Below, one piece after another: positions 10,771-42,372 of a stretch of DNA of 64,000 bases. A program made the translations under genes and the position numbers. The DNA lies in NCBI GenBank assembly GCA_003154195.1, contig PMCS01000029.1:24142-88141 (forward strand), written 5' to 3'. The notes below the pieces were generated by a model. That model saw only the letters and a program-made list of their open reading frames with translations. It did no database searches and had not been told where the DNA came from. Origin of the DNA: Candidatus Omnitrophota bacterium. GTDB taxonomy: Bacteria; Omnitrophota; Gorgyraeia; Duberdicusellales; 4484-171. Numbering within the stretch: position 1 is the stretch's first letter; every line of letters starts with the position of its first letter.

Positions 10771-12213
10771 TCATGCGCCGAACCAACCGGTCACAGGACT
10801 GGGCAACAATCCAATACCGATATGCTTGGATTGGATATATTCGAAAAACCCTTCCCGTCCAAGATTGCGGCCCCAGCCGCTTGCCCGAACGCCGCCGAAA
10901 GGCGTAAGCGAACTCATCTGAACAAAGGAATTCACCCAAACCGTTCCGTAGCTGATCTCTCCGGCGAGCCTTTGGGCATAAGGTAAATCCTTAGTCCAGA
11001 TCTGGCAGACTAAGCCGGTAGGGTTATTTTCAATGATTTCTTCGGCTTCGCGCCGGCCGTTAAAACTTTTGAGCAATACCACCGGCGCGAAAAACTCTTC
11101 GTAGCAGATATTTTTTAATTCGATAACCGTAGCGGGATAAAAATAACCTTTTCCGGCAAGGGGTTTGCCGCCGCATAAAATTACCGCGCCGGTTTTTATC
11201 AATTCGCTCACTTTATTATCGATATCATCCCGGTGTTTTTTCGTCGCTATTGGCCCCAAACCGTTTTCCGGCGCGAACGGGTCGCCGATTTTTATCGCCC
11301 CGGCCTTGCGGACAAGCTCGCGGGAAAACTCCGGATAAATTTTTTCATCCACCAGTGCCAGGCTTGTCCCGATACACATCTGCCCCTGCTTCATAAATGA
11401 CGAACCTAAAATATTTTGCATCGCCGCTTCTTTATCGCAATCGGCAAATACCGCCGCGATGTTGCAGCCGCCTAATTCACAGATTATTTTTTTGGGGTTG
11501 TCGACGGTAGCGGCGATTATCTTTTTCAGCGTTTGGCGCGAACCGGTAAAAGAAATCAAATCGACCGGGCTTTCGGCCAAAGCTTTGCCGATGGTTTCAC
11601 CTCTTCCCGTAACTACGTTAATCAACCCCTTGGGCAAATCTAACCGGTCTAAATGCTTCACCAACTCGAGCAGGGAAAGTGAAGCGAATTCCGAAGGTTT
11701 GATAATTAAAGAATTCCCTGCCGCCAATGCCGCGGCGCCGGTGAAACCAAAAATCATCAACGGCACATTGTAGGGCAGGTAAACGCCGCATACGCCGAAA
11801 GGCTCATATTTGATTAAATCTATCCCGTACTCGCCCGGCAGGCTTTCCTCCTGGATACTTTCCAGAAAAGAAGCGTAATATTTAAAACAATCGGCGCCCA
11901 ATTGGATATCGACAAACAAGGATTCCTTAAACGGTTTACCGATTTCCCGCGTTTCCAAGGTGGCTAAAGTATTCAAATTATCATAAATACACTTGGCGAT
12001 TTCCCGCAACGCCGCCGCCCTTTCCTTGAAGGAAGTTTTTTTCCAGAGTTTTGCCGCTTGCTTCGCGCCGGTAACCGCGGCTTGCAGATCTTTTTCCGAA
12101 GTCTGCGATAGGCGCGCGAAAATTTCTTCCGTGGCGGGATTAACCACATTAATTTTTTCATCGCCTGTTTTAAATTCTCCGGCGATATAATATTTGTATT
12201 CTTCCATAATCAA
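10771..12213 (-). CDS. NAD(P)-dependent aldehyde dehydrogenase
   Basis: ALDH-family motifs are present: ELGGCN, the catalytic-cysteine region FMKQGQMCIGTSL, and the glycine-rich NAD site FTGSRQTLKKI. Confidence 0.85.
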   Translation of the reverse strand: MIMEEYKYYIAGEFKTGDEKINVVNPATEEIFARLSQTSEKDLQAAVTGAKQAAKLWKKTSFKERAAALREIAKCIYDNLNTLATLETREIGKPFKESLFVDIQLGADCFKYYASFLESIQEESLPGEYGIDLIKYEPFGVCGVYLPYNVPLMIFGFTGAAALAAGNSLIIKPSEFASLSLLELVKHLDRLDLPKGLINVVTGRGETIGKALAESPVDLISFTGSRQTLKKIIAATVDNPKKIICELGGCNIAAVFADCDKEAAMQNILGSSFMKQGQMCIGTSLALVDEKIYPEFSRELVRKAGAIKIGDPFAPENGLGPIATKKHRDDIDNKVSELIKTGAVILCGGKPLAGKGYFYPATVIELKNICYEEFFAPVVLLKSFNGRREAEEIIENNPTGLVCQIWTKDLPYAQRLAGEISYGTVWVNSFVQMSSLTPFGGVRASGWGRNLGREGFFEYIQSKHIGIGLLPSPVTGWFGA

Positions 12214-12348: not shown

Positions 12349-13380
12349 CTATTGACGATGCGGTTCGATGATGACCTTAAGCGACTCTTTCGCTTCGGCG
12401 GTAAGCCGAAAACCCAAACCCGTATCGGCTAACGACAGCCGATGGGTGATCATTTTCGATAAAGGAAGCCGCCCGCCGGAAATCAAACCGGCGGCGATAT
12501 TCGCGTCGCTGGGGCTGCTCCCGTAAGAAGGCATCAATTTTATTTCATTGCGCCAGAATTGGTTTAACGGCACCGGTAGATTTACGCCCGGCTCGGTACA
12601 GGCAAAAAACAACACCGTCCCTCCCCGGTCTACCGCGGAAAGCGCCTGGGCAAATGCCGGGAGCGCACCGGTACAGACAATAACCAGATCCGCCGGCCTT
12701 CCCTGGTTACGCTCTTTTACTTTCGCCGCGATATCTTCATTGGCTTTAAACACCGCGTCGGCGCCAAACTCTTGGGCAAATTTAAGGCGATAATCGTTTA
12801 TATCCGTAGAGAAAATTTTTCCGGCGCCGGCGTGGCGCGCGGCAATAAGATGCAGAAGCCCGGATATGCCGCTGCCGATAATCAGTATCGTCTGGCCAAG
12901 TTTGGCCTGAGCCAATCTCTGGCCGCGCAAAACGCAGGCCAGCGGTTCGATAAAAGTTGCGTCCTCGTAAGACATTTCCTTCGGCAAAACCACCACGCCC
13001 CGGTCGACATTCAAGCTGGGAACGCGCAAATACTGCGCGAATCCGCCGGGGTCATAGTTGGTAGTGTGCAGCGTCTCGCAAGCCGTATGATAACCGCTTA
13101 AACAGTAATGACAGGTATTACAGGGAACGTGATGGGCGACGAATATCCGGTCGCCCACCTTATACTGGTTGACCCCTTCCCCGGTTTGTACGATTTGGCC
13201 GCCAATCTCATGGCCTAAAACCAACGGCGCTTTTTTTATGCGGTACCACTCTAGAACGTCGCTGCCGCAAATACCGCTGGCAATCACCTTTACCAGAAGT
13301 TCACCCTTGCCGATTTTCGGTATCGGCCTGGTTTCAATGCGCACATCGCGGTTATTATAATAAACCGCGGCTTGCATCAT
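12349..13380 (-). CDS. zinc-dependent alcohol dehydrogenase of the MDR family (threonine/sorbitol dehydrogenase-like)
   Basis: GICGSDV...GHEIGGQIV carries the Zn ligands, and GSGISGLLHLIAARHAGAG is the Rossmann motif. The start could instead be the upstream ATG at 13416, which has an AGGA ribosome-binding site but would overlap the next gene by 35 nt. Confidence 0.8.
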   Translation of the reverse strand: MMQAAVYYNNRDVRIETRPIPKIGKGELLVKVIASGICGSDVLEWYRIKKAPLVLGHEIGGQIVQTGEGVNQYKVGDRIFVAHHVPCNTCHYCLSGYHTACETLHTTNYDPGGFAQYLRVPSLNVDRGVVVLPKEMSYEDATFIEPLACVLRGQRLAQAKLGQTILIIGSGISGLLHLIAARHAGAGKIFSTDINDYRLKFAQEFGADAVFKANEDIAAKVKERNQGRPADLVIVCTGALPAFAQALSAVDRGGTVLFFACTEPGVNLPVPLNQFWRNEIKLMPSYGSSPSDANIAAGLISGGRLPLSKMITHRLSLADTGLGFRLTAEAKESLKVIIEPHRQ

Positions 13381-13381
13381 C

Positions 13382-14188
13382 TCATTTGCTTTTGCTTTTT
13401 TTATTTTTGGTTTCATTGAAAATATCCTGAGCTTCTTTTATATCGGCATCTTCATGAATAATCGCCCTTAAAGCTTTGGCCATGGCAACAGGGTGGGGGC
13501 TCTGCCAGACGTTCCTGCCCAGGTTGACGCCGATCGCTCCTTTTTGCATTCCATCATAGACAAATTCAAAGACCTGCTTTTCGGTTTCGCATTTCGGGCC
13601 GCCGGCAATCACCACCGGCACCGGGCACCCTTTTACCACTTTATCGAAATCCTTATCGCACCAATAAGTCTTCACCACCCGCGCGCCTAATTCCGCGGCG
13701 ATGCGGCAGCAAAGCGCTAAATAGCGCGCCTCGCGCTTTTCGATCTCTTTGCCGACTGCGGTTACGGCCATCACCGGAATACCGTAGTTCTCGCATTGGT
13801 TGACCAACTGGGCTAGATTATTCAAAGTCTGCTTTTCGTAAGCGCTGCCGATAAACACCGATATACCGACCGCGCTGGCATTGAGCCGAATGATTTCTTC
13901 AATCGAAGTTGTCAAAGCTTCGTCGGCTAAATCCTTACCGACCATGCTGGTGCCGCCGGAAACCCGCAGGATTATCGGCTTAGAACCAACCGCTTCGATG
14001 CAGGAGCGCAAAACCCCCCTGGTGCAAAAGAGCGCGTCGCAGTATTCGATGATCGGCTTTATCGTTTCGCCGGGCTTTTCCAAACCGGTCGTCGGGCCCT
14101 GAAAATAGCCGTGGTCAATCGGCATAAAAAAACATTTTCCGTCCTCTTTAATCAACTGCGATAAGCGATTCTTCATCCCCCAATCCAT
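13382..14188 (-). CDS. DhnA-type class I fructose-bisphosphate aldolase / ADH-synthase family (DeoC/LacD-like TIM barrel)
   Basis: CFFMPIDHGYFQGPTTGLE...ILRVSGGTS...VVKTYW (Schiff-base lysine region)...VVIAGGPK are typical of DhnA / 2-amino-3,7-dideoxy-D-threo-hept-6-ulosonate synthase-type aldolases. Confidence 0.75.
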   Translation of the reverse strand: MDWGMKNRLSQLIKEDGKCFFMPIDHGYFQGPTTGLEKPGETIKPIIEYCDALFCTRGVLRSCIEAVGSKPIILRVSGGTSMVGKDLADEALTTSIEEIIRLNASAVGISVFIGSAYEKQTLNNLAQLVNQCENYGIPVMAVTAVGKEIEKREARYLALCCRIAAELGARVVKTYWCDKDFDKVVKGCPVPVVIAGGPKCETEKQVFEFVYDGMQKGAIGVNLGRNVWQSPHPVAMAKALRAIIHEDADIKEAQDIFNETKNKKSKSK

Positions 14189-14309
14189 TTTGTGTCCCCC
14201 TAATTGGTTAATTTAATTCTCTTTGTTTTTCTTCCCCATAACCCGCAAGGTGCGCTTGGAGCGGATAAAGAGCGGTAAGAATTTGACGCGAGCAAGCGCA
14301 TTTTGCGGG

Positions 14310-15314
14310 TTATTCTACGGGAGCCTGTTCCCACAATTTAAACGTCCGCACCATCACCGGATACCATTTGCTCATCTTCGCGAAGTCGCCTTTGGTTTTC
14401 ACCTTGCCCTGGGTAGAGGCAACAAACGGGTCGATTTCGCGGTTAAAAACTTTTCTTAATATTTCCGGCTTGCCGATAATCACAAACTCGGCGTTTTCAT
14501 CATTATCGATTTTCATGATCTTTCCATGCTCATAGACAAACCGTATCACTTCGCCGTTATCCTGGTTCTTCACCGCCAGGGTACAGGTCAAATCATACTT
14601 TCTGCCCAATTCTTGCGCTTCGCTGTCATTGTTGACTATGCCCATCAGCGCCCCGGCATGTTCTTCCGACAGCATCTTATATTTTTTTGTATTTGCCTTT
14701 GCTTCTTCGATAGTTTTTTGCTTCTGGTCTGGTGTCTGTAAATTTGCTGATTTCATCAGCAAATTTACCCTTGCCTGTTCTTCCAGCAATTCGATCAGGC
14801 TGAATGCCGCCTTAAAATCATCTCCCACCGCCACAACCCCGTGGTTTTTTAAAACCACGATATTGGCGTTTTCCAATGCTTCCAATACCGGCTCAATATT
14901 AGTTACGGTGGGCGTATCCTGCGCGATGGCTTTCACCTCGCCCAGATAAAACTTCGCTTCGAAAGAAAAAATATCCAACCGGTCAAAATAGTTAAAAAAC
15001 GCGGTAGTAAAAGAGGGATGCGCGTGCAAGACAACCTTTGTATCTTTAAATTGTTTGTAAATCTCCAGATGAAGCTCCCGCTCCACGCTCGGCTCTTCTT
15101 TTCCTTCTAAGATTTTACCGCCTTCTTCCATCAAGACGATATCGGCCTCCTCTAAAAAGCCCAGATAAGCGTCATGGCCGGTAATCATGATTTTACCTCT
15201 GCCGGCGTTCAGGGAAATATTGCCGCTGCGGCCGATTACCAGATTTTTCGCGCCCAGTAACCGCGCCCAGTAAACTATATCCTTTTTTTCTTGTTCGAAA
15301 TTCATATTTACCAT
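14310..15314 (-). CDS. class II aldolase/adducin-domain protein (FucA/MtnB/Ald2-like) fused to a C-terminal SCP2 sterol-carrier domain
   Basis: The N-terminal roughly 200 aa (GRSGNISLNAGRGKIMITGHDAY...HLEIYKQFKDTKVVLHAHP...LKNHGVVAVG) match the class II aldolase fold. The C-terminus (AEFVIIGKPEILRKVFNREIDPFVASTQGKVKTKGDFAKMSK) matches the SCP2 signature. Confidence 0.8.
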   Translation of the reverse strand: MVNMNFEQEKKDIVYWARLLGAKNLVIGRSGNISLNAGRGKIMITGHDAYLGFLEEADIVLMEEGGKILEGKEEPSVERELHLEIYKQFKDTKVVLHAHPSFTTAFFNYFDRLDIFSFEAKFYLGEVKAIAQDTPTVTNIEPVLEALENANIVVLKNHGVVAVGDDFKAAFSLIELLEEQARVNLLMKSANLQTPDQKQKTIEEAKANTKKYKMLSEEHAGALMGIVNNDSEAQELGRKYDLTCTLAVKNQDNGEVIRFVYEHGKIMKIDNDENAEFVIIGKPEILRKVFNREIDPFVASTQGKVKTKGDFAKMSKWYPVMVRTFKLWEQAPVE

Positions 15315-15579
15315 TTTAATCGGATTTTTTCGAAAGTGAAGTTATAAATTCAACAATATCGGCTGTTTTATTCTTCGCGGCACTAAAACCCCGTTTTTCA
15401 AAACGGGGTACCACCGACGAAGTCGGTGGTATAATTCGACTACAGCCTTGCGCTACGTCCTTCGGGCTTGCGCTCGGCTAAGTCTCATTAATTAACACGG
15501 TGTGCCGCTCTAGAATGAGCCTTGCTGGATACCCCGGTCTTCAGACCGGGGAGTTATGGAAGGCTTCATTTTGCGCGGC

Positions 15580-16905
15580 TCACGGCGTAACGGCATAAAG
15601 CTCATCCAGCGGACTCTTGGGAGCGTTACTCATATCCCGCAGAACATGAGTATAGATCATCGTCGTTTCCACATTCTTATGCCCCAGCAGCTCCTGCACC
15701 TCGCGAATGTTTACCCCGTTCTGCAAAAGATGCGTGGCAAAGCTATGGCGCATGGTATGAACCGTCGCGTGCTTGACAATACCCGCTTTGTTAACCGCGG
15801 CGCGCACCGCCTTCTGTATCGAAGTTTCATCGATATGATGCCGCCTCACCTTACCCGAACGCGGATCAACCGAAAGCTTGCTGGAAGGAAAAACATACTG
15901 CCAGCGCCATTCTTTTCCGGCGTTAGGCATCTTACGCCCTAAGCTGTCCGGTAAAAAAACTTCGCCATATCCGGAAACTAAATCTTTGTCATGAAGTTTT
16001 TTAACTTCTTCCAAATGCAAACGTAATTGCCCCTTAACCGCTTGCGGCAAAATCGTCGACCGATCCTTATCGCCCTTGGCCGCACGGACAAAAATTAAAT
16101 TATTATCGAAATCAATATCCTGCGCGCGAAGCCGCGCCAGTTCCATCAACCGCAAACCCGAGCCATAAAGCACCTGCGCGATCAATAAATCTCTTCCTTT
16201 GATCTGCTTGAATAATTCCTGAACCTCTCTTACCGACAATACCACCGGAAGCTTAAGCCCCCGCTTAGCCCTCACCGTTTTATCTAAATTACCCAGTTCG
16301 GCGCCAAGCACATCGCGAAATAAAAACAATAGCGCGTTAAACGCCTGATTCTGCGTGGATGACGACACTCGCTTATTAATCGCTAAAAACGTAAGAAAAT
16401 CAGTAACATCTTCTGACGATAATCCACTCGAACAAATCTCTTTCTTTTTTACTTCTGCCGTATATTCAAAAAATCGTTTAATCCAATCCAAGTAGGTGCG
16501 TTCCGTGCTGTAAGAAAAATGCTTAACCCGGATTAGCCGGCGGGCCTTCTCTAAAATATCTCCCGGGGTATCAGTGGGATCAGCCGAAATTTCCAAATTA
16601 GACGTTTTCTGCCCTTTAAAATGTTCAAAATAAATCTTCAAAGCATCCTGCGCCTGCCGTAACTGCCATTCGCTGGATTGCGCCCCTTCTAATAAGGCTA
16701 AAAATTTATTCTGCTGTTCGAGAAAAGATAGATTCCCATAATTTTGGGAAAACTTCAAAAACTTATCCACCCAAACCGCGCAATAAGATACATACTTAGA
16801 GTCAGTAAATTTCTTATCCAGCAAAAACTTTTGGAATTCCGGCAATACGTTTTCGTAGGATTTTTTCTTTTCTGCCAAGTTTCCCATGCTATACGGATTC
16901 CGCAT
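15580..16905 (-). CDS. intI: integron integrase (IntI-type tyrosine recombinase) with an N-terminal extension of about 105 aa
   Basis: The C-terminal half [92 protein letters not shown] aligns with IntI1 and VchIntIA. This includes the IntI-specific extra segment between the RHR and HxxR patches and the catalytic RHRY tyrosine. The gene is transcribed divergently from a downstream attC cassette array. Confidence 0.85.
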
Positions 16906-17263
16906 AATCTGATATTATAGAGCAAAGGCGGAACAATTCAATAAGAAAATGATATTTTTAGTGCGTAATCGTCATATTTTTGCTAAAATACACAAGGGTA
17001 CCAAAGAAAACACCGAATCCGTATATTAATTGTTGCGCGAAATCCAAATAATATAGAACCAGTATTTATTTCGCGCAACGCGGAGCTCAGGCTTCGCCGT
17101 TCCGCGCTTTGTCGCGCCTAAATTCAAAAATCGTACGCGCAACAAATCGCTCCAGCGGAATACGCAAAATGTAAGCAGGTAAATGCGCCACCTGTATTAT
17201 CAAAGGAACGCGCACTTACCTGCCACCTACACTTTGCGTATTCCGCTGAGCTCCGCGTTAGGC
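16906..17263. promoter_or_regulatory. putative attI / integron promoter region with nested long inverted repeats, ending at a GTTAGGC core-like site
   Basis: Perfect inverted repeats occur at 17032-17042/17068-17078 (11 bp), 17077-17090/17246-17259 (14 bp) and 17153-17168/17233-17248 (16 bp). GTTAGGC (matching GTTRRRY) lies at 17257-17263, about 10 nt before the first cassette ATG (17274). Confidence 0.4.
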
Positions 17264-17273
17264 CAAAAAATAA

Positions 17274-17861
17274 ATGAAAATTATTGCAATAATAGCGCTG
17301 GTCATTGGTGGATTGATTTCTTCTGGTAATTGGTCTACGATTTATCAATCACACAAAGACAAAAGACACGTTTCAACAATTCCTATTTTAGGAGCTATAT
17401 TCCTCGGCATTGGCCTAACATATTTTAAAGCAACTAGACCGCTTGCCTTGCTATGCTTGATTGCTGACTATGGAACGCTGCTCCTTATTATTTCAACTCC
17501 GCGGCTAATAAACGAAGCCTGGAAAACTAGCCGGTTTAATTTGGTTAACGCCCTTGCCGGTTGTTCCCAGTATACTGAATATAAATTAAATCTTTATAAA
17601 AAGGGAATTTTTGTAATCAGGGCAAAAGTTAATCCTCCTCAAGCAACCAATGAGCATGGCGCCTTAATCAAAGAGTTTGGTTTTGAAAGGCAATGGGAAC
17701 AAAAGAAAAACGTTATTGTTTTAAGCCGATATGCAAACAATAGAGAGGTTACACTAGTGCAAAGCAATAATAAATATATCTCCAGAGAAAGTAATTATCC
17801 CAAAGACAGAAAATGTAATTATGATATGTTGGATGGTATCGAATTTACAAAAAACGCCTAA
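17274..17861 (+). CDS. integron cassette ORF: hypothetical membrane-anchored protein (195 aa)
   Basis: It is the first ORF after the GTTAGGC junction. It is AT-rich relative to the flanking chromosome. There are two N-terminal hydrophobic helices and no recognisable family. Confidence 0.55.
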   Translation: MKIIAIIALVIGGLISSGNWSTIYQSHKDKRHVSTIPILGAIFLGIGLTYFKATRPLALLCLIADYGTLLLIISTPRLINEAWKTSRFNLVNALAGCSQYTEYKLNLYKKGIFVIRAKVNPPQATNEHGALIKEFGFERQWEQKKNVIVLSRYANNREVTLVQSNNKYISRESNYPKDRKCNYDMLDGIEFTKNA

Positions 17862-17951
17862 CAATTTCATCCAGCGGATTTTGCCTACGGCACCCGAAAT
17901 TTTCCCGCAAAAACATTAAAAATATGTTATAATTTGTTTGGAGGCAATCTT

Positions 17952-18170
17952 ATGAAAATAACCGATATCCCTAAAATTTCTCGCTTAAGTATAGCCGAAA
18001 AAATTTTATTCGTAGAAGAACTGTGGGATTCTATCTCGTCCAACAAACGCATCCCTGTCCCTGAATCTCATAAGGCGGAGCTGGATAGAAGGCTGCTTAA
18101 ATACCAAAACAATCGGGGACGCCTACTCTCCTTGAAAGAACTGCAAGCGCGAATAGAAAAAAGAAAATAA
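17952..18170 (+). CDS. antitoxin, putative addiction-module component (CHP02574-like), partner of the ParE/RelE toxin
   Basis: MKITDIPKISRLSIAEKILFVEELWDSISS...ELDRRLLKYQNNRGRLLSLKELQARIEKRK matches the small 'putative addiction module component' antitoxin family. A GGAGG ribosome-binding site and a TGTTATAAT -10-like box lie upstream. The stop is 3 nt before the toxin start. Confidence 0.7.
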   Translation: MKITDIPKISRLSIAEKILFVEELWDSISSNKRIPVPESHKAELDRRLLKYQNNRGRLLSLKELQARIEKRK

Positions 18171-18172
18171 CC

Positions 18173-18484
18173 ATGGGTTATTCGTTATCATTCCTTCCTG
18201 AAGTTGAAGAAGACGCTATCGGCGCGTATCTTTGGTATGAAGAAAAATCCCAAGGCCTCGGCGAAGATTTATTAAGAATATTTTATGCCGGCGCCGCTGA
18301 AATAGCCAGAACTCCCAATCTTTATCCCAGAGTCTATAAAAACTTCCATCGCAAACTTCTTAAACGCTTCCCCTACGCTGTCTATTTTTTTGTTGAAAGA
18401 AAAACTATTATCGTTTACGGATTATTCCATTGCGCCAGAAATCCGTATTTAATACAAGAAAAAATAAACAATAGACACTCCTAA
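18173..18484 (+). CDS. ParE/RelE-family toxin
   Basis: LSFLPEVEEDAIGAYLWYEEKS...FPYAVYFFVERKTIIVYGLFHCARNP fits the ParE/RelE fold consensus. It is immediately downstream of the antitoxin and its stop overlaps the start of the attC. Confidence 0.7.
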   Translation: MGYSLSFLPEVEEDAIGAYLWYEEKSQGLGEDLLRIFYAGAAEIARTPNLYPRVYKNFHRKLLKRFPYAVYFFVERKTIIVYGLFHCARNPYLIQEKINNRHS

Positions 18485-18608
18485 CCAGAAAATCCAGCCG
18501 ACCTGAACCGTTCTGCTTCGCGCTTTATTAGGAAGCATAGTCGCGTTGACGCGCTTCGCAGCAACGAGCCGGCACGAACGGTTCAGGCGGCTGATTATTG
18601 TGTTAGAC
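18479..18608 (+). repeat. integron attC site 1 (about 130 bp, imperfect palindrome, ends GTTAGAC)
   Basis: It begins with CCTAACC overlapping the toxin stop codon. The arm ATCCAGCCGACCTGAACC pairs with GGTTCAGGCGGCTGAT with a bulge, and the site ends ...TGTGTTAGAC. It is homologous to the sites at 19078, 19715 and 20163. Confidence 0.75.
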
Positions 18609-18644
18609 ATAAATAATTAATATAAAAACAAAAAAGGAGGGAAA

Positions 18645-19067
18645 ATGGATAAATTAACGAGAGAAGCTCAAGAACATGGTGAAATTTTTGAATCATTAAT
18701 CTTTTTCGAAAAATTAATACCTGTCTTGTCTGATAAAAATATTGAAAAATTCAAAAGCTTTCTCGATGAACATGCTGAGGATCATTTTGAATTTGAAGAA
18801 AAAGAAATATTCCCAATAATATTAGACAAAGGAACAAATGAAGAAAAAAATTTAATCGAAGAGTTACAAAGTCAGCATAAAGAAATACTGGATATGATCA
18901 ATCAATTAGATAAACTAGTGTCTACCCATGGCGCATCTTCCTCTGGAAATAATAAAGAAAAAATCATGAAACTGAACACAAAAATAATTGAATCACTGCT
19001 TGCGCATGCTCGTAAGGAAGATACTGAGATATTCCCTATTTTTAAAAAATATGGAAACAACATTTAA
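18645..19067 (+). CDS. cassette ORF: hemerythrin-like (HHE cation-binding) protein (140 aa)
   Basis: Repeated H...E / H..H..E spacing (EHGEIFE, DEHAEDHFEFEE, QSQHKEILD, LLAHARKEDTEIF) suggests a hemerythrin-like four-helix bundle. It is very AT-rich. An AAGGAGGG ribosome-binding site lies upstream. Confidence 0.45.
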   Translation: MDKLTREAQEHGEIFESLIFFEKLIPVLSDKNIEKFKSFLDEHAEDHFEFEEKEIFPIILDKGTNEEKNLIEELQSQHKEILDMINQLDKLVSTHGASSSGNNKEKIMKLNTKIIESLLAHARKEDTEIFPIFKKYGNNI

Positions 19068-19077
19068 AATAACAAAT

Positions 19078-19210
19078 GTCTAACCATCAAATCCAGCCGA
19101 CCTGAACCGCTTCTGCTTCGCCCTTTGTTAGGCAAGTAATAGCGTTGATGGGCTTCGCAGAAACAGGGGCACGGAAGGAGTGGTTCAGGCGGCTGATTAT
19201 ATTGTTAGAA
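19078..19210 (+). repeat. integron attC site 2 (about 133 bp, ends GTTAGAA)
   Basis: GTCTAACCATCAAATCCAGCCGACCTGAACC ... GGTTCAGGCGGCTGATTATATTGTTAGAA is about 85% identical to attC site 1. Confidence 0.75.
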
Positions 19211-19277
19211 CCAATAAAATAATAAAAAACTCGAAAAACAAAGGAAAATATGGTAGACTTAAATAGAGGTGGGAACA

Positions 19278-19484
19278 ATGAGCGAAATTATATTTATTAT
19301 TGAAAATTCCGACGAAGGCGGCTACACCGCCAAAGCCCTCGGTTATTCCATTTATACCGAGGCAGAAACCATGGAAGAGCTGAAAGAAAACATTAAAGAC
19401 GCGGTAAAATGCCACATTGACGCTAAAGAACTACCCCATATCGTTCGTCTTCACATGGTAAAAGACGAAGTAATGGCGATATGA
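19278..19484 (+). CDS. hicB: HicB-family antitoxin (UPF0150)
   Basis: MSEIIFIIENSDEGGYTAKALGYSIYTEAETMEELKENIKDAVKCHI matches the HicB N-terminal RNase-H-like fold consensus (EGGYTAxxPxLPGCxTxGETxEEAxxNxKEAI). A GAGGTGG ribosome-binding site lies upstream. It overlaps hicA by 4 nt. Confidence 0.7.
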   Translation: MSEIIFIIENSDEGGYTAKALGYSIYTEAETMEELKENIKDAVKCHIDAKELPHIVRLHMVKDEVMAI

Positions 19485-19720
19485 GACTACCCAGAGAAAT
19501 TAGCGGCGAAGAACTGGCAAAACTTCTCAAAAAATACGCCTACGAAATTACCCGACAAACCGGCAGCCACATGCGGCTTACTACCACCCTTCAAGGCGAA
19601 CACCACATTACCATCCCTGCGCATAAATATCTTAAAATCGGCACATTAAACGGAATTCTGTCCGATGTTGCCAATCATTTCAAAATAGATAAAAACGATT
19701 TAATTAAAGAATTGTTCTAA
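19481..19720 (+). CDS. hicA: HicA-family mRNA interferase toxin
   Basis: ISGEELAKLLKKYAYEITRQTGSHMRLT...ITIPAHKYLKIGTLNGILSDV matches HicA (xLxKxGWxxxRxxGSHxxxxHP...VPxHxxDLxxGTLxSILKQA). The ATGA overlap indicates translational coupling with hicB. Confidence 0.7.
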   Translation: MRLPREISGEELAKLLKKYAYEITRQTGSHMRLTTTLQGEHHITIPAHKYLKIGTLNGILSDVANHFKIDKNDLIKELF

Positions 19721-19797
19721 CCAACAAATCCAGCCGACCCTGCTCCGCCGTCGCTTCGCTCCTGGCTTCGCAGAGGCGGCTGATTTTTGTGTTAAAT
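19715..19797 (+). repeat. integron attC site 3 (short, about 83 bp, ends GTTAAAT)
   Basis: TTCTAACCAACAAATCCAGCCGACC ... GGCGGCTGATTTTTGTGTTAAAT. It has the same left and right arms as the other attC sites but a shorter centre. Confidence 0.7.
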
Positions 19798-19839
19798 AAT
19801 AAATGGGAATAACAACACGCTTTGATATAATGATTATAG

Positions 19840-20019
19840 ATGAATAAAAGAATCATAAAAATAACAAGCATTAAGAATAAGGACAATGCGTTTGCTTATT
19901 GGCTTTCAAAGCCGGCTAGCGAACGTATCGAAGCCGTCGAGATACTAAGGAAACAGCTCAATGGAAACGCAAAAAGATTTCAAAGAACTATTAGAATTAT
20001 TCAACAAGCACAAGGTTAA
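19840..20019 (+). CDS. small cassette ORF (59 aa), hypothetical
   Basis: The ATG at 19840 gives MNKRIIKITSIKNKDNAFAYWLSKPASERIEAVEILRKQLNGNAKRFQRTIRIIQQAQG. It falls below the 60-aa cut-off of the ORF track and overlaps the downstream pseudogene in another frame. Confidence 0.3.
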   Translation: MNKRIIKITSIKNKDNAFAYWLSKPASERIEAVEILRKQLNGNAKRFQRTIRIIQQAQG

Positions 20020-20162
20020 ATACATAATCGTCGGCGCCTACGCTCTGGCATTCCCATGGAAACACACCCGCCTACTTTATCGGCAAAAATGATTTTATCG
20101 TAAACAAAAAGTCCCTAGGCCGGCATAAAGACATGGCTGACATAGAATCTATCACTGAATAA
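19961..20162 (+). pseudogene. decayed cassette gene: nucleotidyltransferase-fold protein fragment with an internal deletion or frameshift
   Basis: The N-terminal piece METQKDFKELLELFNKHKVKYIIVGAYALAF matches the small nucleotidyltransferase family (LLxLLNxxxVxYLVIGGYA). After a frame break, only the C-terminal piece VNKKSLGRHKDMADIESITE* (RPKDLADIE-like) remains in a different frame. Confidence 0.4.
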
Positions 20163-20219
20163 TCATTTAACAAGCCAGCCGACCTCGCCTACGGCGGGCG
20201 ACGAATTTTTGTGTTAGAA
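20163..20219 (+). repeat. integron attC site 4 (short, about 57 bp, ends GTTAGAA)
   Basis: AAGCCAGCCGACCTCGCCTACGGCGGGCGACGAATTTTTGTGTTAGAA shares the CCAGCCGACC left arm and TTTTTGTGTTAGAA right end. Confidence 0.6.
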
Positions 20220-20231
20220 AAGGGAAAAACA

Positions 20232-20825
20232 ATGAAATGGGTAGCTGTTTCACTATTGCTCATGATAACCCTGGGGATAAATTCCAGTGTGGAGCCGGCA
20301 TCATCTGCCGCTCAAGATGAACACATCGAAAAACTCATCCAAGCGTTATACACGCATCCCTGGCCGGGCGCGGAAATGTTTGCCGAGCCGATGGAGTGGG
20401 ATTTTCACTTCACCGAGCCGATACAGGCCCTGCTCGAAATCGGCGCGGCGGCTCAGAAACCGCTTTTAGCGCGGCTTTCGGATCCGGCGATAACGGACCA
20501 GGTCATTTTTTTGCTGGGTGGTGTCGGCGACGAAGAGTCGGTTGGCCCGATAATCGCCGCGATGGAACAGGCGTCAAACCTGCCGGCAGAAAAACGTAAA
20601 AGAATCCTCGAGGTGGGAAATTTGGCACTGACGAATATCACCGTAGCGGATATAATCTGGCACCATGGAGGCGGTATTGTCCTTGACCGCTGCCCGGATG
20701 ACCCGGCCCAATGCTGGGCCCAATGGTGGAAACAAAATAAGGCGACTTTTCGGGTGCGCGATATAAAACAAAGCCGGCGCTACAGCAACTACCCGGGCTA
20801 TGGCATCTATAAAGGCCTGCCGTAA
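20232..20825 (+). CDS. cassette ORF: secreted hypothetical protein (197 aa)
   Basis: MKWVAVSLLLMITLGINSSVEPASSA is a signal peptide. The ATG at 20232 lies just after the attC core. The longer track ORF starts at GTG inside the attC. Confidence 0.55.
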   Translation: MKWVAVSLLLMITLGINSSVEPASSAAQDEHIEKLIQALYTHPWPGAEMFAEPMEWDFHFTEPIQALLEIGAAAQKPLLARLSDPAITDQVIFLLGGVGDEESVGPIIAAMEQASNLPAEKRKRILEVGNLALTNITVADIIWHHGGGIVLDRCPDDPAQCWAQWWKQNKATFRVRDIKQSRRYSNYPGYGIYKGLP

Positions 20826-20966
20826 ACTCCTGTCACCGTTTTCCAACAAATCGTTTCAGCGCACCCGCGAAAAGCGCGAACCGCTTGATTCTTTCTTTAT
20901 AGCCCTACCTTGCGGTGATGATAATTTATATAAGAAAAGCGGAATTGGCGAAAAAGACAGGAAGCG

Positions 20967-21470
20967 TCAGCTTTTGGTCCTGAGGTCAACAGAAACAGTC
21001 AGCATCGGTATTTCGATAAATTCGTCATCCGCCGGAATAATCGAATCGGCTTTATTCGGCGCCGCGATAAATGCCTTGCCCCCCAAAACCGAAACATCGT
21101 CTTTAAATAAACCCGCGGGGGCATTGCCTTGAAGAAAAATCGAAATGGGAACATTATGGAGTTTGCTTAACATCGCGGCATAAAGGCTTCCGGCAATTGC
21201 GGTAATGCCCTGGTCGGTTTTAGTTTTGTAAAAAATCATCGTTTTGGCGATTTTATTTTTATAGAACAACATCCCCAGGGTGTTATCGGTGCAATACACA
21301 AACGACAACTCGGCGCGTTTTAAAATAGACATATTGTATTTAAGCCCCAGCATAAACGGCCGGTTTTCCGGCAGAATCACCAGATTTCTTTGCCGGCGAA
21401 GTTCCATCACCCCCTCGGGAGATATCGGGCCCCAGATTAAAAATGCGTTATTAATATTTTCTAATTTCAT
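20967..21470 (-). CDS. truncated eIF-2B/MtnA-family paralog (C-terminal-domain-like, 167 aa)
   Basis: ENRPFMLGLKYNMSILKRAELSFVYCTDNTLGMLF...GITAIAGSLYAAMLSKLHNVPISIF aligns weakly with the ETRPxLQGxRLTxWEL...GADR...NKxGTYxxAxxAKxHxxPFY region of the adjacent full-length gene. The catalytic residues are not conserved. Confidence 0.45.
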   Translation of the reverse strand: MKLENINNAFLIWGPISPEGVMELRRQRNLVILPENRPFMLGLKYNMSILKRAELSFVYCTDNTLGMLFYKNKIAKTMIFYKTKTDQGITAIAGSLYAAMLSKLHNVPISIFLQGNAPAGLFKDDVSVLGGKAFIAAPNKADSIIPADDEFIEIPMLTVSVDLRTKS

Positions 21471-21486
21471 AATTAATACTTATATC

Positions 21487-22392
21487 TTATTCAAAAAGAT
21501 TAAGCTCGATCGGTTTGGTGACAAAATCGCCTTTAGTAATATCGAACGCCGGGTATACCGCGTCGACCTGGGAAAAATCTCCCCCTAAAAACATAAACGT
21601 TTCTTCTTTCGGCCTTTCTTCAATCGGGATTGCGTCGATATTAATCTTTATGGGGTACTGAGTTAAAGGATAAAAAGGTATCCCAAAGTGTTTAGCCAGG
21701 CGCGCTATCGCGTAGGTGCCTAATTTATTGATGACATCATTGCCGACGGTAGCGCGGTCGGCGCCGGTTACCACGCAGTTAACGATACCGTTCCGCATCA
21801 AGCTTGCCGCCTGGTTGTCGCAAAGAACTTTTACCGGGATATTATTTTTCTGCAGTTCCCAATAAGTCAGGCGCGTACCCTGCAAATACGGCCGCGTTTC
21901 CGAAACATAAAAACAGGCTTTTTTCCCGAGTTGGGTTAATTCTTCATAAAGATAGAGCAATTCGCCGTTAACATTGCAAATGGTTAGAATATTGGCGGGA
22001 TCGGGCAGGATTTGCGCCAAAGCCAGGCAGCGTTTTTTCCTTGCCCGGTCAAAAGCCCACACAAAGCTTTCCACGGCGTCTTTCACCGTTACCCCGTTGC
22101 CGGTCTGGCGCTTGATAATCGAGGCAAGCGTGTCGAAATCGAAGGTCGGCCGCACCGCCTTGAATTGGCCGCAAATATAATCGACAGTTGTCTCCTGCCG
22201 GAATAAGGCGCAGGAATAAAAAAACAGGAGCACCTGGCCCAGGGAACGGGTCTTCATTTCTTTCAAAACCCACAACGCTTTCGGCAAACCGGTAACTTCG
22301 ATATACTCTTCCTTAAAAGGGATAAGGGTTTCATCCAGAACGACAATCTTATTATCTTTTATTTGAACGGGAAATAAGAGTGGGCTTTCCAT
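21487..22392 (-). CDS. eIF-2B alpha/beta/delta-family sugar-phosphate isomerase (MtnA / 5-deoxyribose-1-P isomerase-like)
   Basis: ETRPYLQGTRLTYWELQKNNIPVKVLCDNQAASLM...VVTGADRATVGNDVINKLGTYAIARLAKHFGIPFYPL...IPIEERPKEE matches the methylthioribose-1-phosphate isomerase signatures. Confidence 0.75.
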   Translation of the reverse strand: MESPLLFPVQIKDNKIVVLDETLIPFKEEYIEVTGLPKALWVLKEMKTRSLGQVLLFFYSCALFRQETTVDYICGQFKAVRPTFDFDTLASIIKRQTGNGVTVKDAVESFVWAFDRARKKRCLALAQILPDPANILTICNVNGELLYLYEELTQLGKKACFYVSETRPYLQGTRLTYWELQKNNIPVKVLCDNQAASLMRNGIVNCVVTGADRATVGNDVINKLGTYAIARLAKHFGIPFYPLTQYPIKINIDAIPIEERPKEETFMFLGGDFSQVDAVYPAFDITKGDFVTKPIELNLFE

Positions 22393-22418: not shown

Positions 22419-23219
22419 TTATATTAGCTTTTTATAAAGCTTCCTTATTTTCGGCGTGACGGTGAATTTATCGATATTAAAAGACCGGTCTGCTGCCTGC
22501 GCCACCGGCATTATTCCCATCAACGAGCTGGTCAAGAATACTTCATCGCAGTTAAGCAAATCGGTTTTCGTAAATTCTCCTTCGACAATCTTTATTTTAT
22601 TATCCCGGCAGATATCGATAACGGCTTTCCGGGTGACGCCGGCCAGCAAACCGCAGGAAAGGCCGGGTGTAAAAACTTTCTTATTTTTTACTAAAAAAAT
22701 ATTACTGCGGCTGCCTTCCTGTAGAAACCATCTTTCATTCAAAAAAATAGCCTCTTCTTTTTGCTGTTTTTGCGCGGCCAGCCAGGCAATCCGGTTTTTC
22801 ACATAACTCAAAGATTTGACACTCAAAAATTCGTCTTTGGAGTAGCGGATGATATCGGAAAATATTATTTTTGCCCCTTTCTGGTAATCCTCTTCCTTGT
22901 AATAATCAAATTCCGAAACCTGGATGATACAGCCGGCGCCTTTCCTTTTTTTAAAAACATTGATCCGCACGTAAGCATCCTCCAAATCATTTTGAGCCAT
23001 AAGGCTCAAAATGATTTGCTTATAATCTAAATCAGGGCATTCTAATTGCAAAAATTTAGCACCGTCCCTTAAACGGCCGATATGTTCATTCAGAAAAGGA
23101 ATATTTCCGCCGCGCGGCCGGAAAGTCTCGAACACCCCCCAGCCGAATAAATATCCCGGCTCAAGAACTTCCCCCAACGTTTCTTTTTCAACAAATTGAT
23201 TATTACAATATATTTTCAT
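22419..23219 (-). CDS. class IV aminotransferase (BCAT / D-aminotransferase / ADC-lyase fold)
   Basis: The GWGVFETFR motif and a length of 266 aa are consistent with a fold-type IV PLP enzyme. Confidence 0.7.
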   Translation of the reverse strand: MKIYCNNQFVEKETLGEVLEPGYLFGWGVFETFRPRGGNIPFLNEHIGRLRDGAKFLQLECPDLDYKQIILSLMAQNDLEDAYVRINVFKKRKGAGCIIQVSEFDYYKEEDYQKGAKIIFSDIIRYSKDEFLSVKSLSYVKNRIAWLAAQKQQKEEAIFLNERWFLQEGSRSNIFLVKNKKVFTPGLSCGLLAGVTRKAVIDICRDNKIKIVEGEFTKTDLLNCDEVFLTSSLMGIMPVAQAADRSFNIDKFTVTPKIRKLYKKLI

Positions 23220-23226: not shown

Positions 23227-24114
23227 TCAGCTTATAAATTCCAGAAAATTACCACTGGTTATTTTATTTTTTATACCGGGGCCGAAAGCTTCCAGCTCCC
23301 CGAGATTATCCTGCACGTCGGGATTAACCGGGTAATCCGAGCCCCACAGGATACGGTCGTCGCCGAATAAATCAACGGCAAGTTTTATATTGGTAAGGCT
23401 GGCGCCGGAAGTATCTACGTATATTTTCTTAAGTATTTCCGAAGGCTTTTTCCCTAAATCTTTTACCATACCCCTGGCTTTCAGCATCGGATATACCCGG
23501 TCAAAGCGGTCTTTTAAAAACGGCATTACGCCGCCCAGGGAAGAAAAAATAAACTTGATCCGGTAGCGGTCTAAAACCCCCTGCATCATCAAAATCCCCA
23601 TACACAACGACAAATCAAAACTGTATTCAAGAACCGGCATAAGCAAAGGGTCGTCAACCCGGTCAAACCCTACCGGATTATCCGTCTGGGGATGGATAAA
23701 AACGTTCATCTTATTTGCTTGCAGGGCTTCAAAAACAAGGGTAAGTTTATCGATGACGAACTTGCCGTTATAACTCGACGCCAGGCTTACCGCCTTAAAG
23801 CCTCTCTCCGCCAATTCGGCGATCTGGCCCGGTATATACGAAACATCGTCCATGTTGAGAATCGCGCAGGGGATGATCTTAGGGTTTTCTTTCGCGAGGG
23901 CCTCGACTTCGCCATTATAGATCACCGCTTCCTCTTCGTGGCCGCGCAGCTTTTTATGCGCATCAGTCGAGGGATAAACCAGAAGAGCTTTAGCGATACC
24001 ATTGGCATCGAGAAAATCGTAAAGCTTATCCTTATCCTGCCAAACCCCTTGATAAAAAGAAGTATAGGCGCCGATTGCTTGAGGAATGTAGTGGAGATGA
24101 GCGTCACAGAGCAT
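23227..24114 (-). CDS. amidohydrolase-2 family metal-dependent TIM-barrel hydrolase
   Basis: The N-terminal MLCDAHLHY (HxH metal motif) and a C-terminal D in ...WGSDYP are typical of the amidohydrolase_2 (ACMSD-like) family. Confidence 0.65.
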   Translation of the reverse strand: MLCDAHLHYIPQAIGAYTSFYQGVWQDKDKLYDFLDANGIAKALLVYPSTDAHKKLRGHEEEAVIYNGEVEALAKENPKIIPCAILNMDDVSYIPGQIAELAERGFKAVSLASSYNGKFVIDKLTLVFEALQANKMNVFIHPQTDNPVGFDRVDDPLLMPVLEYSFDLSLCMGILMMQGVLDRYRIKFIFSSLGGVMPFLKDRFDRVYPMLKARGMVKDLGKKPSEILKKIYVDTSGASLTNIKLAVDLFGDDRILWGSDYPVNPDVQDNLGELEAFGPGIKNKITSGNFLEFIS

Positions 24115-25872: not shown

Positions 25873-26637
25873 TTATTTCTCAGGATGTTTCTGCTTAAAC
25901 GGTATAACCGGCTTAGTCCACGGCGTAGTCTGGTTGATTACCGCTAACTCCAGGGGACAGGCATTGGCCGGCTGCTTCAACGCGAATAAAATCGCGTCGG
26001 CGATTGTTTCCGGTTCCATAAGCCTTCCCGCTTCGCCTGATACATCTTTTAATTTTCCGGTTAAAGGCGTGTCAGTTACCCCGGGAAAAATCGAAGTCAC
26101 CTTGATGCCAAAATCCCTCATTTCCCAGAATAAGCCTTTGGCAAACGCCCGCAAACCCACTTTCAATGAGGTATAAACTAAAAAATTTCTCGGCGGCGGC
26201 TCGACCATCACCGAACCGGAAGTGATATTGATAATGTGGCCGCATTTCCGGTCCTTCATATGATTGACCACCAGGCGCGCCAACATCACATAGCTGAAGT
26301 AATTAGTGTACATCACTTTCTCGATATCTTCAAGGGGTTGTTCCCAGAAGGGATGCTGGCTGGAAACACCGGCGCCGTTGATTACAACATCGATTTTTTT
26401 GTATTCGAGCAGAGTAGTATTGATTAAACTTTCTAAGTCCTTCTGTTTCGTAACATCGCACTGCACGCAAAGAATATTTTCCTTGCCCTTCACCTTCGCC
26501 TTTAAGTCTTCCAGAACTTCCAGTCGGCGCGCCGCCAATACCAGTGTCGCTCCTTCTCCCGCCAGTTTCTCCACCACCGCTTTACCAATCCCGCCAGACG
26601 CGCCGGTAATAATACAAACTTTGCCTTTTAAACTCAT
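25873..26637 (-). CDS. short-chain dehydrogenase/reductase (SDR)
   Basis: CIITGASGGIGKAVVEKLA is the TGxxxGxG motif. NGAG and the YxxxK active-site motif (YTSLKVGLRAFAK) are present. Confidence 0.85.
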   Translation of the reverse strand: MSLKGKVCIITGASGGIGKAVVEKLAGEGATLVLAARRLEVLEDLKAKVKGKENILCVQCDVTKQKDLESLINTTLLEYKKIDVVINGAGVSSQHPFWEQPLEDIEKVMYTNYFSYVMLARLVVNHMKDRKCGHIINITSGSVMVEPPPRNFLVYTSLKVGLRAFAKGLFWEMRDFGIKVTSIFPGVTDTPLTGKLKDVSGEAGRLMEPETIADAILFALKQPANACPLELAVINQTTPWTKPVIPFKQKHPEK

Positions 26638-28069: not shown

Positions 28070-28432
28070 TTAATCCAAAACCGTTTCGTCAACCGCTCGC
28101 CAGGCCGGATCTACGATACATAAAAATTTTAACATCTTTTTCCCGGTATTTTTTATGCACTGAACCACCTCAGGCGGGATGTAGATAACGCTATCGGGAA
28201 AAACTTTCTTTTGTTCATTATCGATATACATAATCCCCGCTCCCTCAAGGATGTAATATACTTCCGATGTTTTCAGGCTATGCCGGACGGTAGTCTTACC
28301 GGGTTTTACCTGGGCGTAAGCTAAACTATAACGCAGGCTCAAACCAGCCTTGGCCGGGTGTAAAAGTTCCCTTAAAACACACTGGTCTCCCGCAGTAAAT
28401 TTTTTGCACTCTTTTAAACGTCTGATAAACAT
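28070..28432 (-). CDS. cupin-domain protein
   Basis: The 120-aa protein has two beta-motifs (VKPGKTTVRHSLKTSEVYYILEGAGIMYI and VIYIPPEVVQCIKNTGKK) typical of a small cupin barrel. Confidence 0.6.
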   Translation of the reverse strand: MFIRRLKECKKFTAGDQCVLRELLHPAKAGLSLRYSLAYAQVKPGKTTVRHSLKTSEVYYILEGAGIMYIDNEQKKVFPDSVIYIPPEVVQCIKNTGKKMLKFLCIVDPAWRAVDETVLD

Positions 28433-38857: not shown

Positions 38858-38858
38858 C

Positions 38859-42365: not shown

Positions 42366-42372
42366 ATATCAT

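Follow-up and report, generated by a model that had tools for sequence, protein, structure and literature searches.

Does an integron that lies among the genes of a putative sugar-phosphate pathway interrupt a formerly contiguous gene unit, and what chemistry does that unit encode? The question is raised by a 64-kb stretch of DNA from an uncultured Omnitrophota bacterium (hereafter the window, to which all coordinates refer unless another locus is named). Genes were called from the list of open reading frames (ORFs) together with Pfam and NCBIfam scans, which reproduced the gene coordinates and families of a first-pass annotation (Table 1). That annotation had placed an integron between the isomerase half and the aldolase half of a cluster resembling the dihydroxyacetone phosphate (DHAP) shunt. 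The cluster has a conserved order. Its upstream part runs from an MFS transporter through a short-chain dehydrogenase/ketoreductase (SDR), a B12-binding radical S-adenosylmethionine (SAM) enzyme (B12rSAM), an Amidohydro_2 protein and a class IV aminotransferase to an MtnA-like isomerase; it continues with a small IF-2B-like protein (sIF2B), a class II aldolase with an SCP2 domain, an LsrF-like enzyme, a polyol-type Zn-dehydrogenase (ZnADH) and an aldehyde dehydrogenase (ALDH). We are nearly certain that a genuine integron is inserted into this ancestrally contiguous cluster, and the explanation that we favor overall, with moderate confidence, is a split conserved cluster with a core of DHAP-shunt type.

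The comparison set comprised three loci found via the isomerase (L001-L003), 80 more loci from a one-genome-per-species scan, and loci L092 and L093; synteny was analyzed by tblastn over 83 loci and by ORF clustering. L001-L003, L092, and L093 have contiguous clusters without an integron. Specifically, the order in L001-L003 is MFS-SDR-B12rSAM-Amidohydro_2-(aminotransferase)-isomerase-small ORF-aldolase/SCP2-(LsrF-like, ZnADH, ALDH), and the small ORF directly adjoins the aldolase gene or overlaps it. The sIF2B and aldolase genes are adjacent in 35 of the 36 loci holding both, and in the one exception two genes of the cluster itself lie between them. These loci belong to Omnitrophota, Desulfofervidaceae, Syntrophobacter-labelled metagenome-assembled genomes (MAGs), Binatia, 'Deltaproteobacteria', and Chloroflexota/Limnocylindrales. 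Only in the window, among the compared loci, are the two genes separated by an integron, being about 5.65 kb apart. The flanking genes are all full length and both cluster halves are intact. The synteny check proposed with the first-pass annotation thus gave the result that the cluster is contiguous in integron-free relatives and that the integron interrupts an ancestral unit. The co-directional packing of the genes on the minus strand, which had also been put forward, is present, but has no weight as operon evidence because almost every gene of the 64 kb is on that strand; the operon evidence is synteny in relatives.

As the sequence comes from metagenome-derived assemblies, in which repeats such as attC sites can cause mis-joins, we considered whether the arrangement is an assembly artefact, or whether the two halves never were one unit. 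The identical IntI is read from 14 contigs, and six of them, fetched from six independent JGI/ENA metagenome assemblies, are 99.9-100% identical to the window over both junctions. Hence, the arrangement is not a chimera, and the adjacency of the junction genes in 35 of 36 related loci speaks against halves that were never joined; we give these two possibilities together a negligible probability. The C-terminus of sIF2B is nine residues longer than in three close orthologues, which places the right insertion boundary near 20967-20995; other orthologues carry short extensions of their own. A target-site duplication, with the 3' end of sIF2B ('ADIVEFI...') repeated upstream of the aldolase start, was considered and rejected, as the family hidden Markov model matched no frame of 15300-15580. 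Some points are to be set against this part of the explanation. No direct repeats were found flanking the insertion and its mechanism was not identified; the closest available relatives share at most 69% protein identity, and none is near enough to date the event; no attI was identified between intI and the cassettes; and a promoter scan returned no more promoter-like sites than in shuffled sequence. Almost every homologue of the isomerase carries the label Candidatus Omnitrophota.

The integrase itself is unambiguous. It scores 409 bits with TIGR02249 (cut-off 265), aligned over the full model, and the identical database protein of 435 aa, starting at 16887, is named 'integron integrase'. IntI belongs to a large environmental clade of proteins of about 430 aa, whose members align over 95-96% of its length. 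Throughout the clade, about 110 aa at the N-terminus (16555-16905, minus strand) form a conserved extension, with homologues in Omnitrophota, PVC-group bacteria, Thermodesulfobacteriota, and Ratteibacteria. Pfam gives no match for the extension, whose sequence pattern resembles a duplicate of the SAM-like core-binding domain. At 64-69% identity, the closest relatives of IntI occur in unrelated genomic contexts, so the location of the integron is specific to this lineage.

The cassette array lies on the plus strand, divergent from intI. All cassette ORFs (about 17135-20905) are on the plus strand and thus antisense to the cluster genes, and intI is co-directional with the downstream half of the cluster. 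The attC ends are conserved, with [CT]CTAAC...AAATCCAGCCGACC on one side and GGCGGCTGATT..GTTAG on the other, and both the R''-side and the R'-side motifs are confined to the array, occurring nowhere else in the window. We folded each site as bottom-strand DNA and compared it with 200 shuffles. Four sites folded better than the shuffles, namely attC0 (z = -9.6), attC2 (-5.0), attC3 (-4.1), and attC4 (-2.75), and the fold of attC1, attC5, and attC6, which are weak or degenerate, was no better; the boundaries of cassettes 1, 5, and 6 are therefore approximate. The integron of the first-pass annotation is thereby borne out; it comprises intI, six to seven cassettes, and attC sites of which at least four are well formed. 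The unusually strong, 130-nt hairpin of attC0 directly follows the attI region and may represent an empty cassette or part of attI. An Rfam scan of 15000-21600 returned as its sole match a miRNA precursor on this hairpin, which is spurious. The GC content of the cassette region is 37-40%, compared with 44-51% in the flanks. Promoter-like sites occur near intI and the cassettes at 16941->16914 (minus strand) and 16881-16908 (plus strand), and a terminator-like site lies at the distal end of the array, at 20872-20886 (plus strand). Compared with 18645-19067 of the window, the hemerythrin cassette of locus L086 (7857-8243) has a small deletion (128 aa vs 140 aa). The array is otherwise identical in all metagenome samples, and hence nothing points to a recent turnover of cassettes.

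A spacer with three hairpins separates the intI stop from the aldolase start, and one of the hairpins (15428-15491) is a copy of a lineage-specific repeated element. Neither the spacer nor the distal 141 bp resembles the sequences that flank the closest intI relatives, or those of the other loci. We therefore rejected the idea that either belongs to the integron platform; the spacer holds a genome-native repeat instead. The repeat is intergenic, about 60 nt long, and has the form TTAATGAGACTT[AC][GA]CCGA ... GTAGTTGAATTAT; five copies occur in the window against 0.11 expected. Its outer stem is conserved and its inner hairpin is variable, some of the changes being compensatory. Copies precede several genes, among them the integron-adjacent aldolase gene; none occurs in the loci of other species, and Rfam has no matching family. 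No terminator-like site was found on the minus strand between intI and the aldolase gene, so that read-through from PintI is possible, and the spacer contains a weak promoter-like site at 15340->15313. The aldolase half is probably expressed through one of these routes or both.

We then inspected the proteins encoded at the two edges of the insertion. The isomerase aligns with MtnA structures (Thermotoga maritima 1t9k, 124 bits), and its Cys139 (TICN) and Asp212 (GADR) align with the MtnA catalytic residues and are invariant in 22 orthologues. In a neighbor-joining tree without bootstrap, all unit-linked isomerases form one clade apart from 45 canonical-type sequences. The assignment to the MtnA/eIF2B family made in the first pass thus stands, with the catalytic Cys and Asp kept, but not as MtnA proper; judged by its sequence, the protein is a sugar-phosphate isomerase of this family in a distinct clade. 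The neighboring 167-aa ORF had been described as a truncated MtnA-like paralog. It belongs instead to a conserved family with 16 stand-alone orthologues, whose members lack the catalytic residues and are homologues of the C-terminal Rossmann-like domain found in MtnA/eIF2B (hhalign probability 95.4%, E = 1.8e-8; PDB profile matches 1t5o at E = 1e-9, and 1t9k). In the Binatia group, sIF2B is fused in frame to the isomerase, giving a protein of about 500 aa. Such fusions were seen in L019-L038 and L040 (e.g., L038 9992-11497), from Binatia, 'Deltaproteobacteria', and Chloroflexota MAGs. Because of this fusion, sIF2B is probably a non-catalytic physical partner of the isomerase rather than a pseudogene.

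The aldolase on the other side of the integron retains E75, H94, H96, and H155, the class II metal triad and glutamate, which are invariant among its orthologues. Its C-terminal SCP2 domain (PF02036), which is of the lipid-binding type, scores 23.9 against a cut-off of 21.3 and was matched in 25 of 30 orthologues (best E = 4e-8). In the AlphaFold2 model (pLDDT 88), the protein has two domains, with a confident, separate alpha/beta domain at residues 214-331. The nearest solved structures by sequence and by fold are 6btg and 6btd, which represent DrdA, the 5-deoxyribulose-1-phosphate aldolase (PMC6079011). The fusion of aldolase and SCP2 is rare, with 51 representatives at E <= 1e-30 among 1.84 billion proteins, and we found no description in the literature of an SCP2-fused class II aldolase beside an MtnA-like isomerase.

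Downstream of the aldolase, the enzyme first annotated as a DhnA-type aldolase is indeed of the DhnA/DeoC family, but the equivalog model NF006081 (367.5 bits, cut-off 297) identifies it as LsrF-type. It aligns with E. coli LsrF (3gkf) at 266 bits, including the KTY motif of the Schiff-base lysine. No lsr context (LsrK, LsrG, or Lsr transporter) was found in the window or in related loci. The adjoining dehydrogenase is Zn-dependent as annotated, but of the polyol/secondary-alcohol clade and not of the acetaldehyde-reductase type; its best PDB matches are ketose reductase, threonine 3-dehydrogenase, arabinitol 4-dehydrogenase, sorbitol dehydrogenase, and galactitol-1-phosphate 5-dehydrogenase. 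Its ORF can be extended to 13416, and its orthologues have 342-343 aa. The LsrF-like and ZnADH genes always adjoin wherever either occurs (L001, L002, L008, L013, and L014), and an orthologue of the ALDH (51-68% identity) is present in the cluster of 13 related loci. In an independent cluster of a Sterolibacterium MAG (L063 6136-11014), genes for a radical SAM enzyme, an LsrF-like protein (402 bits, above the cut-off), methylthioadenosine phosphorylase (MtnP), adenine phosphoribosyltransferase (Apt), and canonical MtnA lie in this order on one strand. The MtnA of this cluster scores 470 with the MtnA models. The L063 cluster suggests a function of LsrF-type enzymes in the salvage of 5'-deoxynucleosides, away from any lsr operon; no paper was found linking LsrF to MtnA or 5-deoxyribulose.

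Two cluster architectures occur among the Omnitrophota and Desulfobacterota loci, and both contain the isomerase, sIF2B, and aldolase/SCP2 genes (the unit). Type A has the order acyl-CoA ligase - B12rSAM - DeoD-like phosphorylase - unit - (ALDH) - MMPL - DUF1329/LolA-like - DUF1302. Type B, to which the window belongs, has the order [KS-CLF-ACP-cyclase-SRPBCC] - MFS - SDR - B12rSAM - Amidohydro_2 - (aminotransferase) - unit - (ALDH, LsrF-like, ZnADH) - (MMPL...-4HBT), and is fullest in L092. The bracketed genes are a minimal type II polyketide synthase (PKS) set, consisting of ketosynthase (KS), chain-length factor (CLF), acyl carrier protein (ACP), PF04199 cyclase, and SRPBCC cyclase, which lies directly upstream of the MFS gene in L092 (1-17772) and also in L001, L003, L005, L008, L012, and L093. 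L092 additionally has MMPL-DUF1329-DUF1302-4HBT downstream. No PKS genes are present in the 64-kb window, where this position holds only a small cupin (28070-28432, minus strand). The Binatia-group loci have the order MarR - Fe-S/CCG protein - phosphorylase - fused isomerase - aldolase/SCP2 - acyl-CoA ligase - phosphopantetheinyl transferase (PPTase). A DeoD-like PNP_UDP_1 phosphorylase is encoded directly upstream of the isomerase in 24 loci, seven from Omnitrophota/Desulfobacterota and 17 from the Binatia group. No description of this cluster in Omnitrophota was found in the literature, and a 'benzene activation' paper on DUF1329/MMPL proved unrelated to it.

The B12rSAM gene is linked to the unit in Omnitrophota and Desulfobacterota loci. 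Its product is 76-82% identical in seven Omnitrophota loci and 37-51% identical in the remaining ones, and its best curated models, BchE and HpnJ, both score under the cut-off. The SDR is 72-78% identical in complete orthologous copies and 63% in a copy cut by a contig end. The first-pass annotation counted four radical SAM enzymes in the window; only three were present among the ORFs scanned (5409-7091, 24220-25683, and 34674-35717). Elsewhere in the window, a 1312-aa ORF without a Pfam match occupies 756-4694 (minus strand), and 36460-49489 holds a co-directional type IV pilus/type II secretion cluster with secretin, PilM, PilN, T2SSF, two T2SSE ATPases, and MshEN-domain proteins. A similar cluster adjoins the operon in L003.

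Table 1. Features of the integron and of the interrupted cluster, with window coordinates.
Feature	Coordinates	Strand	Evidence or remarks
ALDH, last gene of the downstream half	10771..12213	-	PF00171, 423 bits
Zn-dependent medium-chain dehydrogenase	12349..13380	-	ADH_N + ADH_zinc_N
LsrF-like DhnA-family class I aldolase/thiolase	13382..14188	-	NF006081
Class II aldolase with C-terminal SCP2	14310..15305 (or 15314)	-	Aldolase_II, 120 bits; SCP2, 23.9
Spacer between intI stop and aldolase start	15315..15579	-	265 bp; three hairpins
intI	15580..16887/16905	-	TIGR02249
Region between intI and cassettes	16906..17134		Expected PintI/Pc/attI
attC0, first attC-like hairpin, no ORF before it	17135..17266	+	-44.3 kcal/mol; inverted repeats I1, I4
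Cassette 1: 195-aa ORF without assigned function (17274-17861), weak attC	17267..17932	+
Cassette 2: putative toxin-antitoxin pair, attC2 (18479-18608)	17933..18608	+	PF09720; Unstab_antitox 17934-18170, 103-aa ORF 18173-18484
Cassette 3: hemerythrin-domain protein (18645-19067), attC3 (19078-19210)	18609..19210	+	PF01814
Cassette 4: 71-aa ORF (19269-19484), HicA toxin (19481-19720), attC4 (19715-19797)	19211..19797	+	PF07927
Cassette 5: no intact long ORF, short attC5 (20164-20219)	19798..20219	+	End motifs with 2-3 mismatches
Cassette 6: ORF of about 200 aa without assigned function (20211/20233-20825), degenerate attC-like end	20220..20905	+	Distal array end
sIF2B, 167 aa	20967..21470	-	Profile comparison
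MtnA/eIF2B-family isomerase	21487..22392	-	PF01008
Class IV aminotransferase, BCAT-like	22419..23219	-	PF01063; PDB matches are branched-chain aminotransferases
Amidohydro_2, non-oxidative decarboxylase clade	23227..24114	-	PF04909; PDB matches IDCase, LigW, ACMSD
B12-binding radical SAM enzyme	24220..25683	-	PF02310 + PF04055
SDR	25873..26637	-	PF00106
MFS transporter, first conserved cluster gene in this genome	26876..28006	-	PF07690
Hairpin repeat, copy in the spacer	15428-15491	-
Hairpin repeat, copy	51620-51684	-
Hairpin repeat, copy	49500-49560	-
Hairpin repeat, copy	about 500-568	-
Hairpin repeat, copy	35732-35800	+

The adjacency of phosphorylase, isomerase, and aldolase genes in 24 relatives, the conserved catalytic residues, and the resemblance to DrdA make us lean, by a small measure, towards chemistry of DHAP-shunt type for the unit. 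A nucleoside phosphorylase encoded elsewhere in this genome would supply 5-deoxy- or 5-substituted ribose-1-phosphate, which the isomerase, with sIF2B as its probable partner, would convert to the ribulose-1-phosphate. The metal-dependent aldolase would cleave the latter into DHAP and an aldehyde, to be oxidized by the ALDH. A second outlet is plausible, in which the polyol-type dehydrogenase would oxidize C4 of 5-deoxyribulose-1-phosphate to give 3-hydroxy-2,4-pentanedione-5-phosphate, the known LsrF substrate, and the LsrF-like enzyme would thiolyse it to DHAP and acetyl-CoA. As for the substituent at C5, the B12rSAM neighbor fits 5'-deoxyadenosine, and the SCP2 domain, long-chain ligase, and lipid-export genes suit a hydrophobic group; we propose 5'-deoxyadenosine as the physiological source only tentatively. 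The DHAP-shunt signature read in the first pass is accordingly kept in its conserved pairing of isomerase and class II aldolase, with a phosphorylase upstream in many relatives and DrdA as the nearest structure. Not borne out are an isomerase that is MtnA proper and a clear preference of the aldolase for DrdA, and the aldolase carries an SCP2 domain. Several observations weigh against this chemistry. The loop after the catalytic Cys of the isomerase is shortened, and the isomerase scores below the cut-offs of all three MtnA models (NF004326, 155 vs 271; TIGR00512, 143 vs 279; TIGR00524, 127 vs 186). DrdA is barely ahead of FucA as a match of the aldolase (60.8 vs 57.8 bits; fold E 1.3e-14 vs 1.8e-14). 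No kinase or phosphorylase is present among the ORFs of the 64-kb window, and in type B loci the Amidohydro_2 decarboxylase-like gene holds the position of the phosphorylase in other architectures. Finally, the SCP2 domain and the acyl-CoA-ligase-like, MMPL/DUF1329/DUF1302, and type II PKS genes suggest a bulky or hydrophobic substrate, and biosynthesis.

The first-pass annotation described the cluster as catabolic; the unit is, however, embedded in a larger cluster of B12rSAM, type II PKS, and lipid-export genes, which looks biosynthetic and not purely catabolic. The main rival explanation is hence that the cluster is biosynthetic and does not serve salvage, which we hold to be unlikely while taking it seriously. 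A radical SAM enzyme would attach the SAM-derived 5'-deoxyadenosyl or another group to a hydrophobic or polyketide substrate; phosphorylase, isomerase, and aldolase-SCP2 would trim the ribose to a short aldehyde or acid handle; and the handle would be activated as a CoA thioester, used by the type II PKS, and exported by MMPL/LolA-like proteins. The genes flanking the unit agree with such a route, with KS-CLF-ACP-cyclase-SRPBCC cyclase, SDR, B12rSAM, decarboxylase-like, and aminotransferase genes, as well as MMPL-DUF1329-DUF1302-4HBT, and so do the SCP2 domain in 25 of 30 aldolase orthologues and the adjoining gene for a long-chain-fatty-acid-CoA-ligase-like protein, joined in Binatia by one for PPTase. 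DUF1302 and DUF1329 genes have fitness phenotypes on fatty esters in Pseudomonas (10.1101/2020.07.04.188060), which likewise counts for biosynthesis. Yet the window, L002, and the architecture with the PNP-type phosphorylase all lack PKS genes, no radical SAM gene adjoins the unit in the Binatia-group loci, and no product is known. It also counts against this route that most B12-binding radical SAM enzymes of the kind seen here are methyltransferases and do not donate adenosyl groups to substrates. A further, improbable reading is that the unit and its phosphorylase serve no salvage but form a biosynthetic 'adenosyl-trimming' pathway, in which a linked radical SAM enzyme would join 5'-deoxyadenosyl to a hydrophobic substrate and the ribose would be cut to DHAP and a two-carbon-extended aldehyde held by the SCP2 domain. 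The aldehyde would be converted to acyl-CoA either by ALDH and CoA ligase or by the dehydrogenase and the LsrF-type thiolase, and the acyl-CoA would be used by the type II PKS and an outer-membrane lipid export system; the second half of the cluster, downstream of intI, could then be coupled to integrase control.

Two further explanations stay within ordinary catabolism, and to each we assign a very low probability. In canonical methionine salvage, the isomerase would be MtnA and the aldolase-like protein the dehydratase MtnB. The best curated models of the isomerase are indeed those of MtnA, and the class II aldolase fold is common to MtnB, but the isomerase falls below the cut-offs of the afore-mentioned MtnA models (NF004326 and TIGR00512 among them), as does the aldolase below that of the MtnB model (TIGR03328, 55.5 vs 137), and the phylogeny, which had been suggested as a check, separates the unit-linked isomerases from canonical MtnA-like proteins. 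Moreover, no MtnC-, MtnD-, or MtnK-like genes occur in any of the loci, and the ALDH and CoA-ligase neighbors suit an aldehyde product, not a diketone. Alternatively, the genes might form a fucose- or rhamnose-type deoxy-sugar operon unrelated to nucleoside by-products, for which the near-equal matches of the aldolase domain to FucA-type models and structures could be cited. The aldolase is nonetheless far under the FucA cut-offs (TIGR01086, 35.7 vs 400; FucA_Meth, 108.5 vs 250) and under that of AraD (TIGR00760, 41.5 vs 389). Genes for a fucose isomerase, kinase, or permease are lacking, the isomerase that accompanies the aldolase has the MtnA/eIF2B fold, and a nucleoside phosphorylase is the conserved upstream neighbor in relatives. 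DHAP-shunt-type chemistry remains our preferred reading of the unit.

The locus can be set beside several known systems. The DHAP shunt for 5-deoxyribose salvage (MtnP or MtnK/DrdK, MtnA/DrdI, and Ald2/DrdA) was defined in Bacillus thuringiensis and E. coli (PMC6079011, PMC10986504). The likeness consists of an eIF2B/MtnA-fold isomerase gene beside a class II metal-dependent aldolase gene whose aldolase domain matches DrdA best (by a small margin over FucA), a nucleoside phosphorylase directly upstream in many relatives, an ALDH downstream, and the association with radical SAM genes. Here, however, the isomerase has a shortened loop, scores under the MtnA cut-offs, and falls into a clade of its own; it has an obligatory extra non-catalytic IF-2B-like protein, fused to it in Binatia; the aldolase carries SCP2; the gene set is enlarged by an LsrF-like enzyme and a polyol dehydrogenase; a DeoD-like protein takes the place of MtnP as phosphorylase, and the window has no gene for it; and the unit lies within a much larger radical SAM/PKS/lipid-export cluster. 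In the fluorometabolite pathway of Streptomyces cattleya, 5'-fluoro-5'-deoxyadenosine passes through phosphorylase, isomerase, and aldolase to fluoroacetaldehyde and then to ALDH (cited in PMC6079011). The order of enzyme types is the same, and there it makes a building block and does not salvage waste, but none of the loci here showed a SAM enzyme of the fluorinase or chlorinase type, and the phyla and accessory genes differ. With E. coli LsrF, the CoA-dependent thiolase ending autoinducer-2 processing, the LsrF-like enzyme shares the equivalog score and the Schiff-base lysine motif, but it has no LsrK, LsrG, or Lsr transporter among the nearby genes; its constant partner here is instead a polyol-type Zn-dehydrogenase, and it is linked to an isomerase of the MtnA-like kind. 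Sedentary chromosomal integrons of Vibrio and Xanthomonas resemble the integron of the window in an intI divergent from promoterless cassettes, several closely similar attC sites, toxin-antitoxin cassettes, and a location and content that are stable across samples of the species. The present integron differs in lying inside a conserved operon between normally overlapping genes and not beside a housekeeping gene, in its Omnitrophota host, in the IntI extension of about 110 aa, in its small array of six to seven cassettes, and in the unrelated contexts of its nearest IntI relatives (64-69% identity).

The locus is therefore new in two respects, as a chromosomal integron at an unusual intra-operon position and as a DHAP-shunt-like unit with new parts. 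To our knowledge, almost no integron biology has been described in Omnitrophota. Integron platforms are generally regarded as unable to move by themselves, and for this reason the precisely mapped insertion between normally overlapping genes is a useful test case for the relocation of such platforms. The fate of the split operon is also visible, in that its second half ends up co-directional with intI. The interrupted operon in turn defines a rare gene unit across several phyla, and this unit extends the enzymology of the DHAP shunt by an IF-2B-like partner, an SCP2-fused aldolase, and a possible outlet through a dehydrogenase and an LsrF-type thiolase that would yield DHAP and acyl-CoA. If this outlet is confirmed, LsrF homologues outside enteric bacteria would gain a role unrelated to quorum-signal processing.

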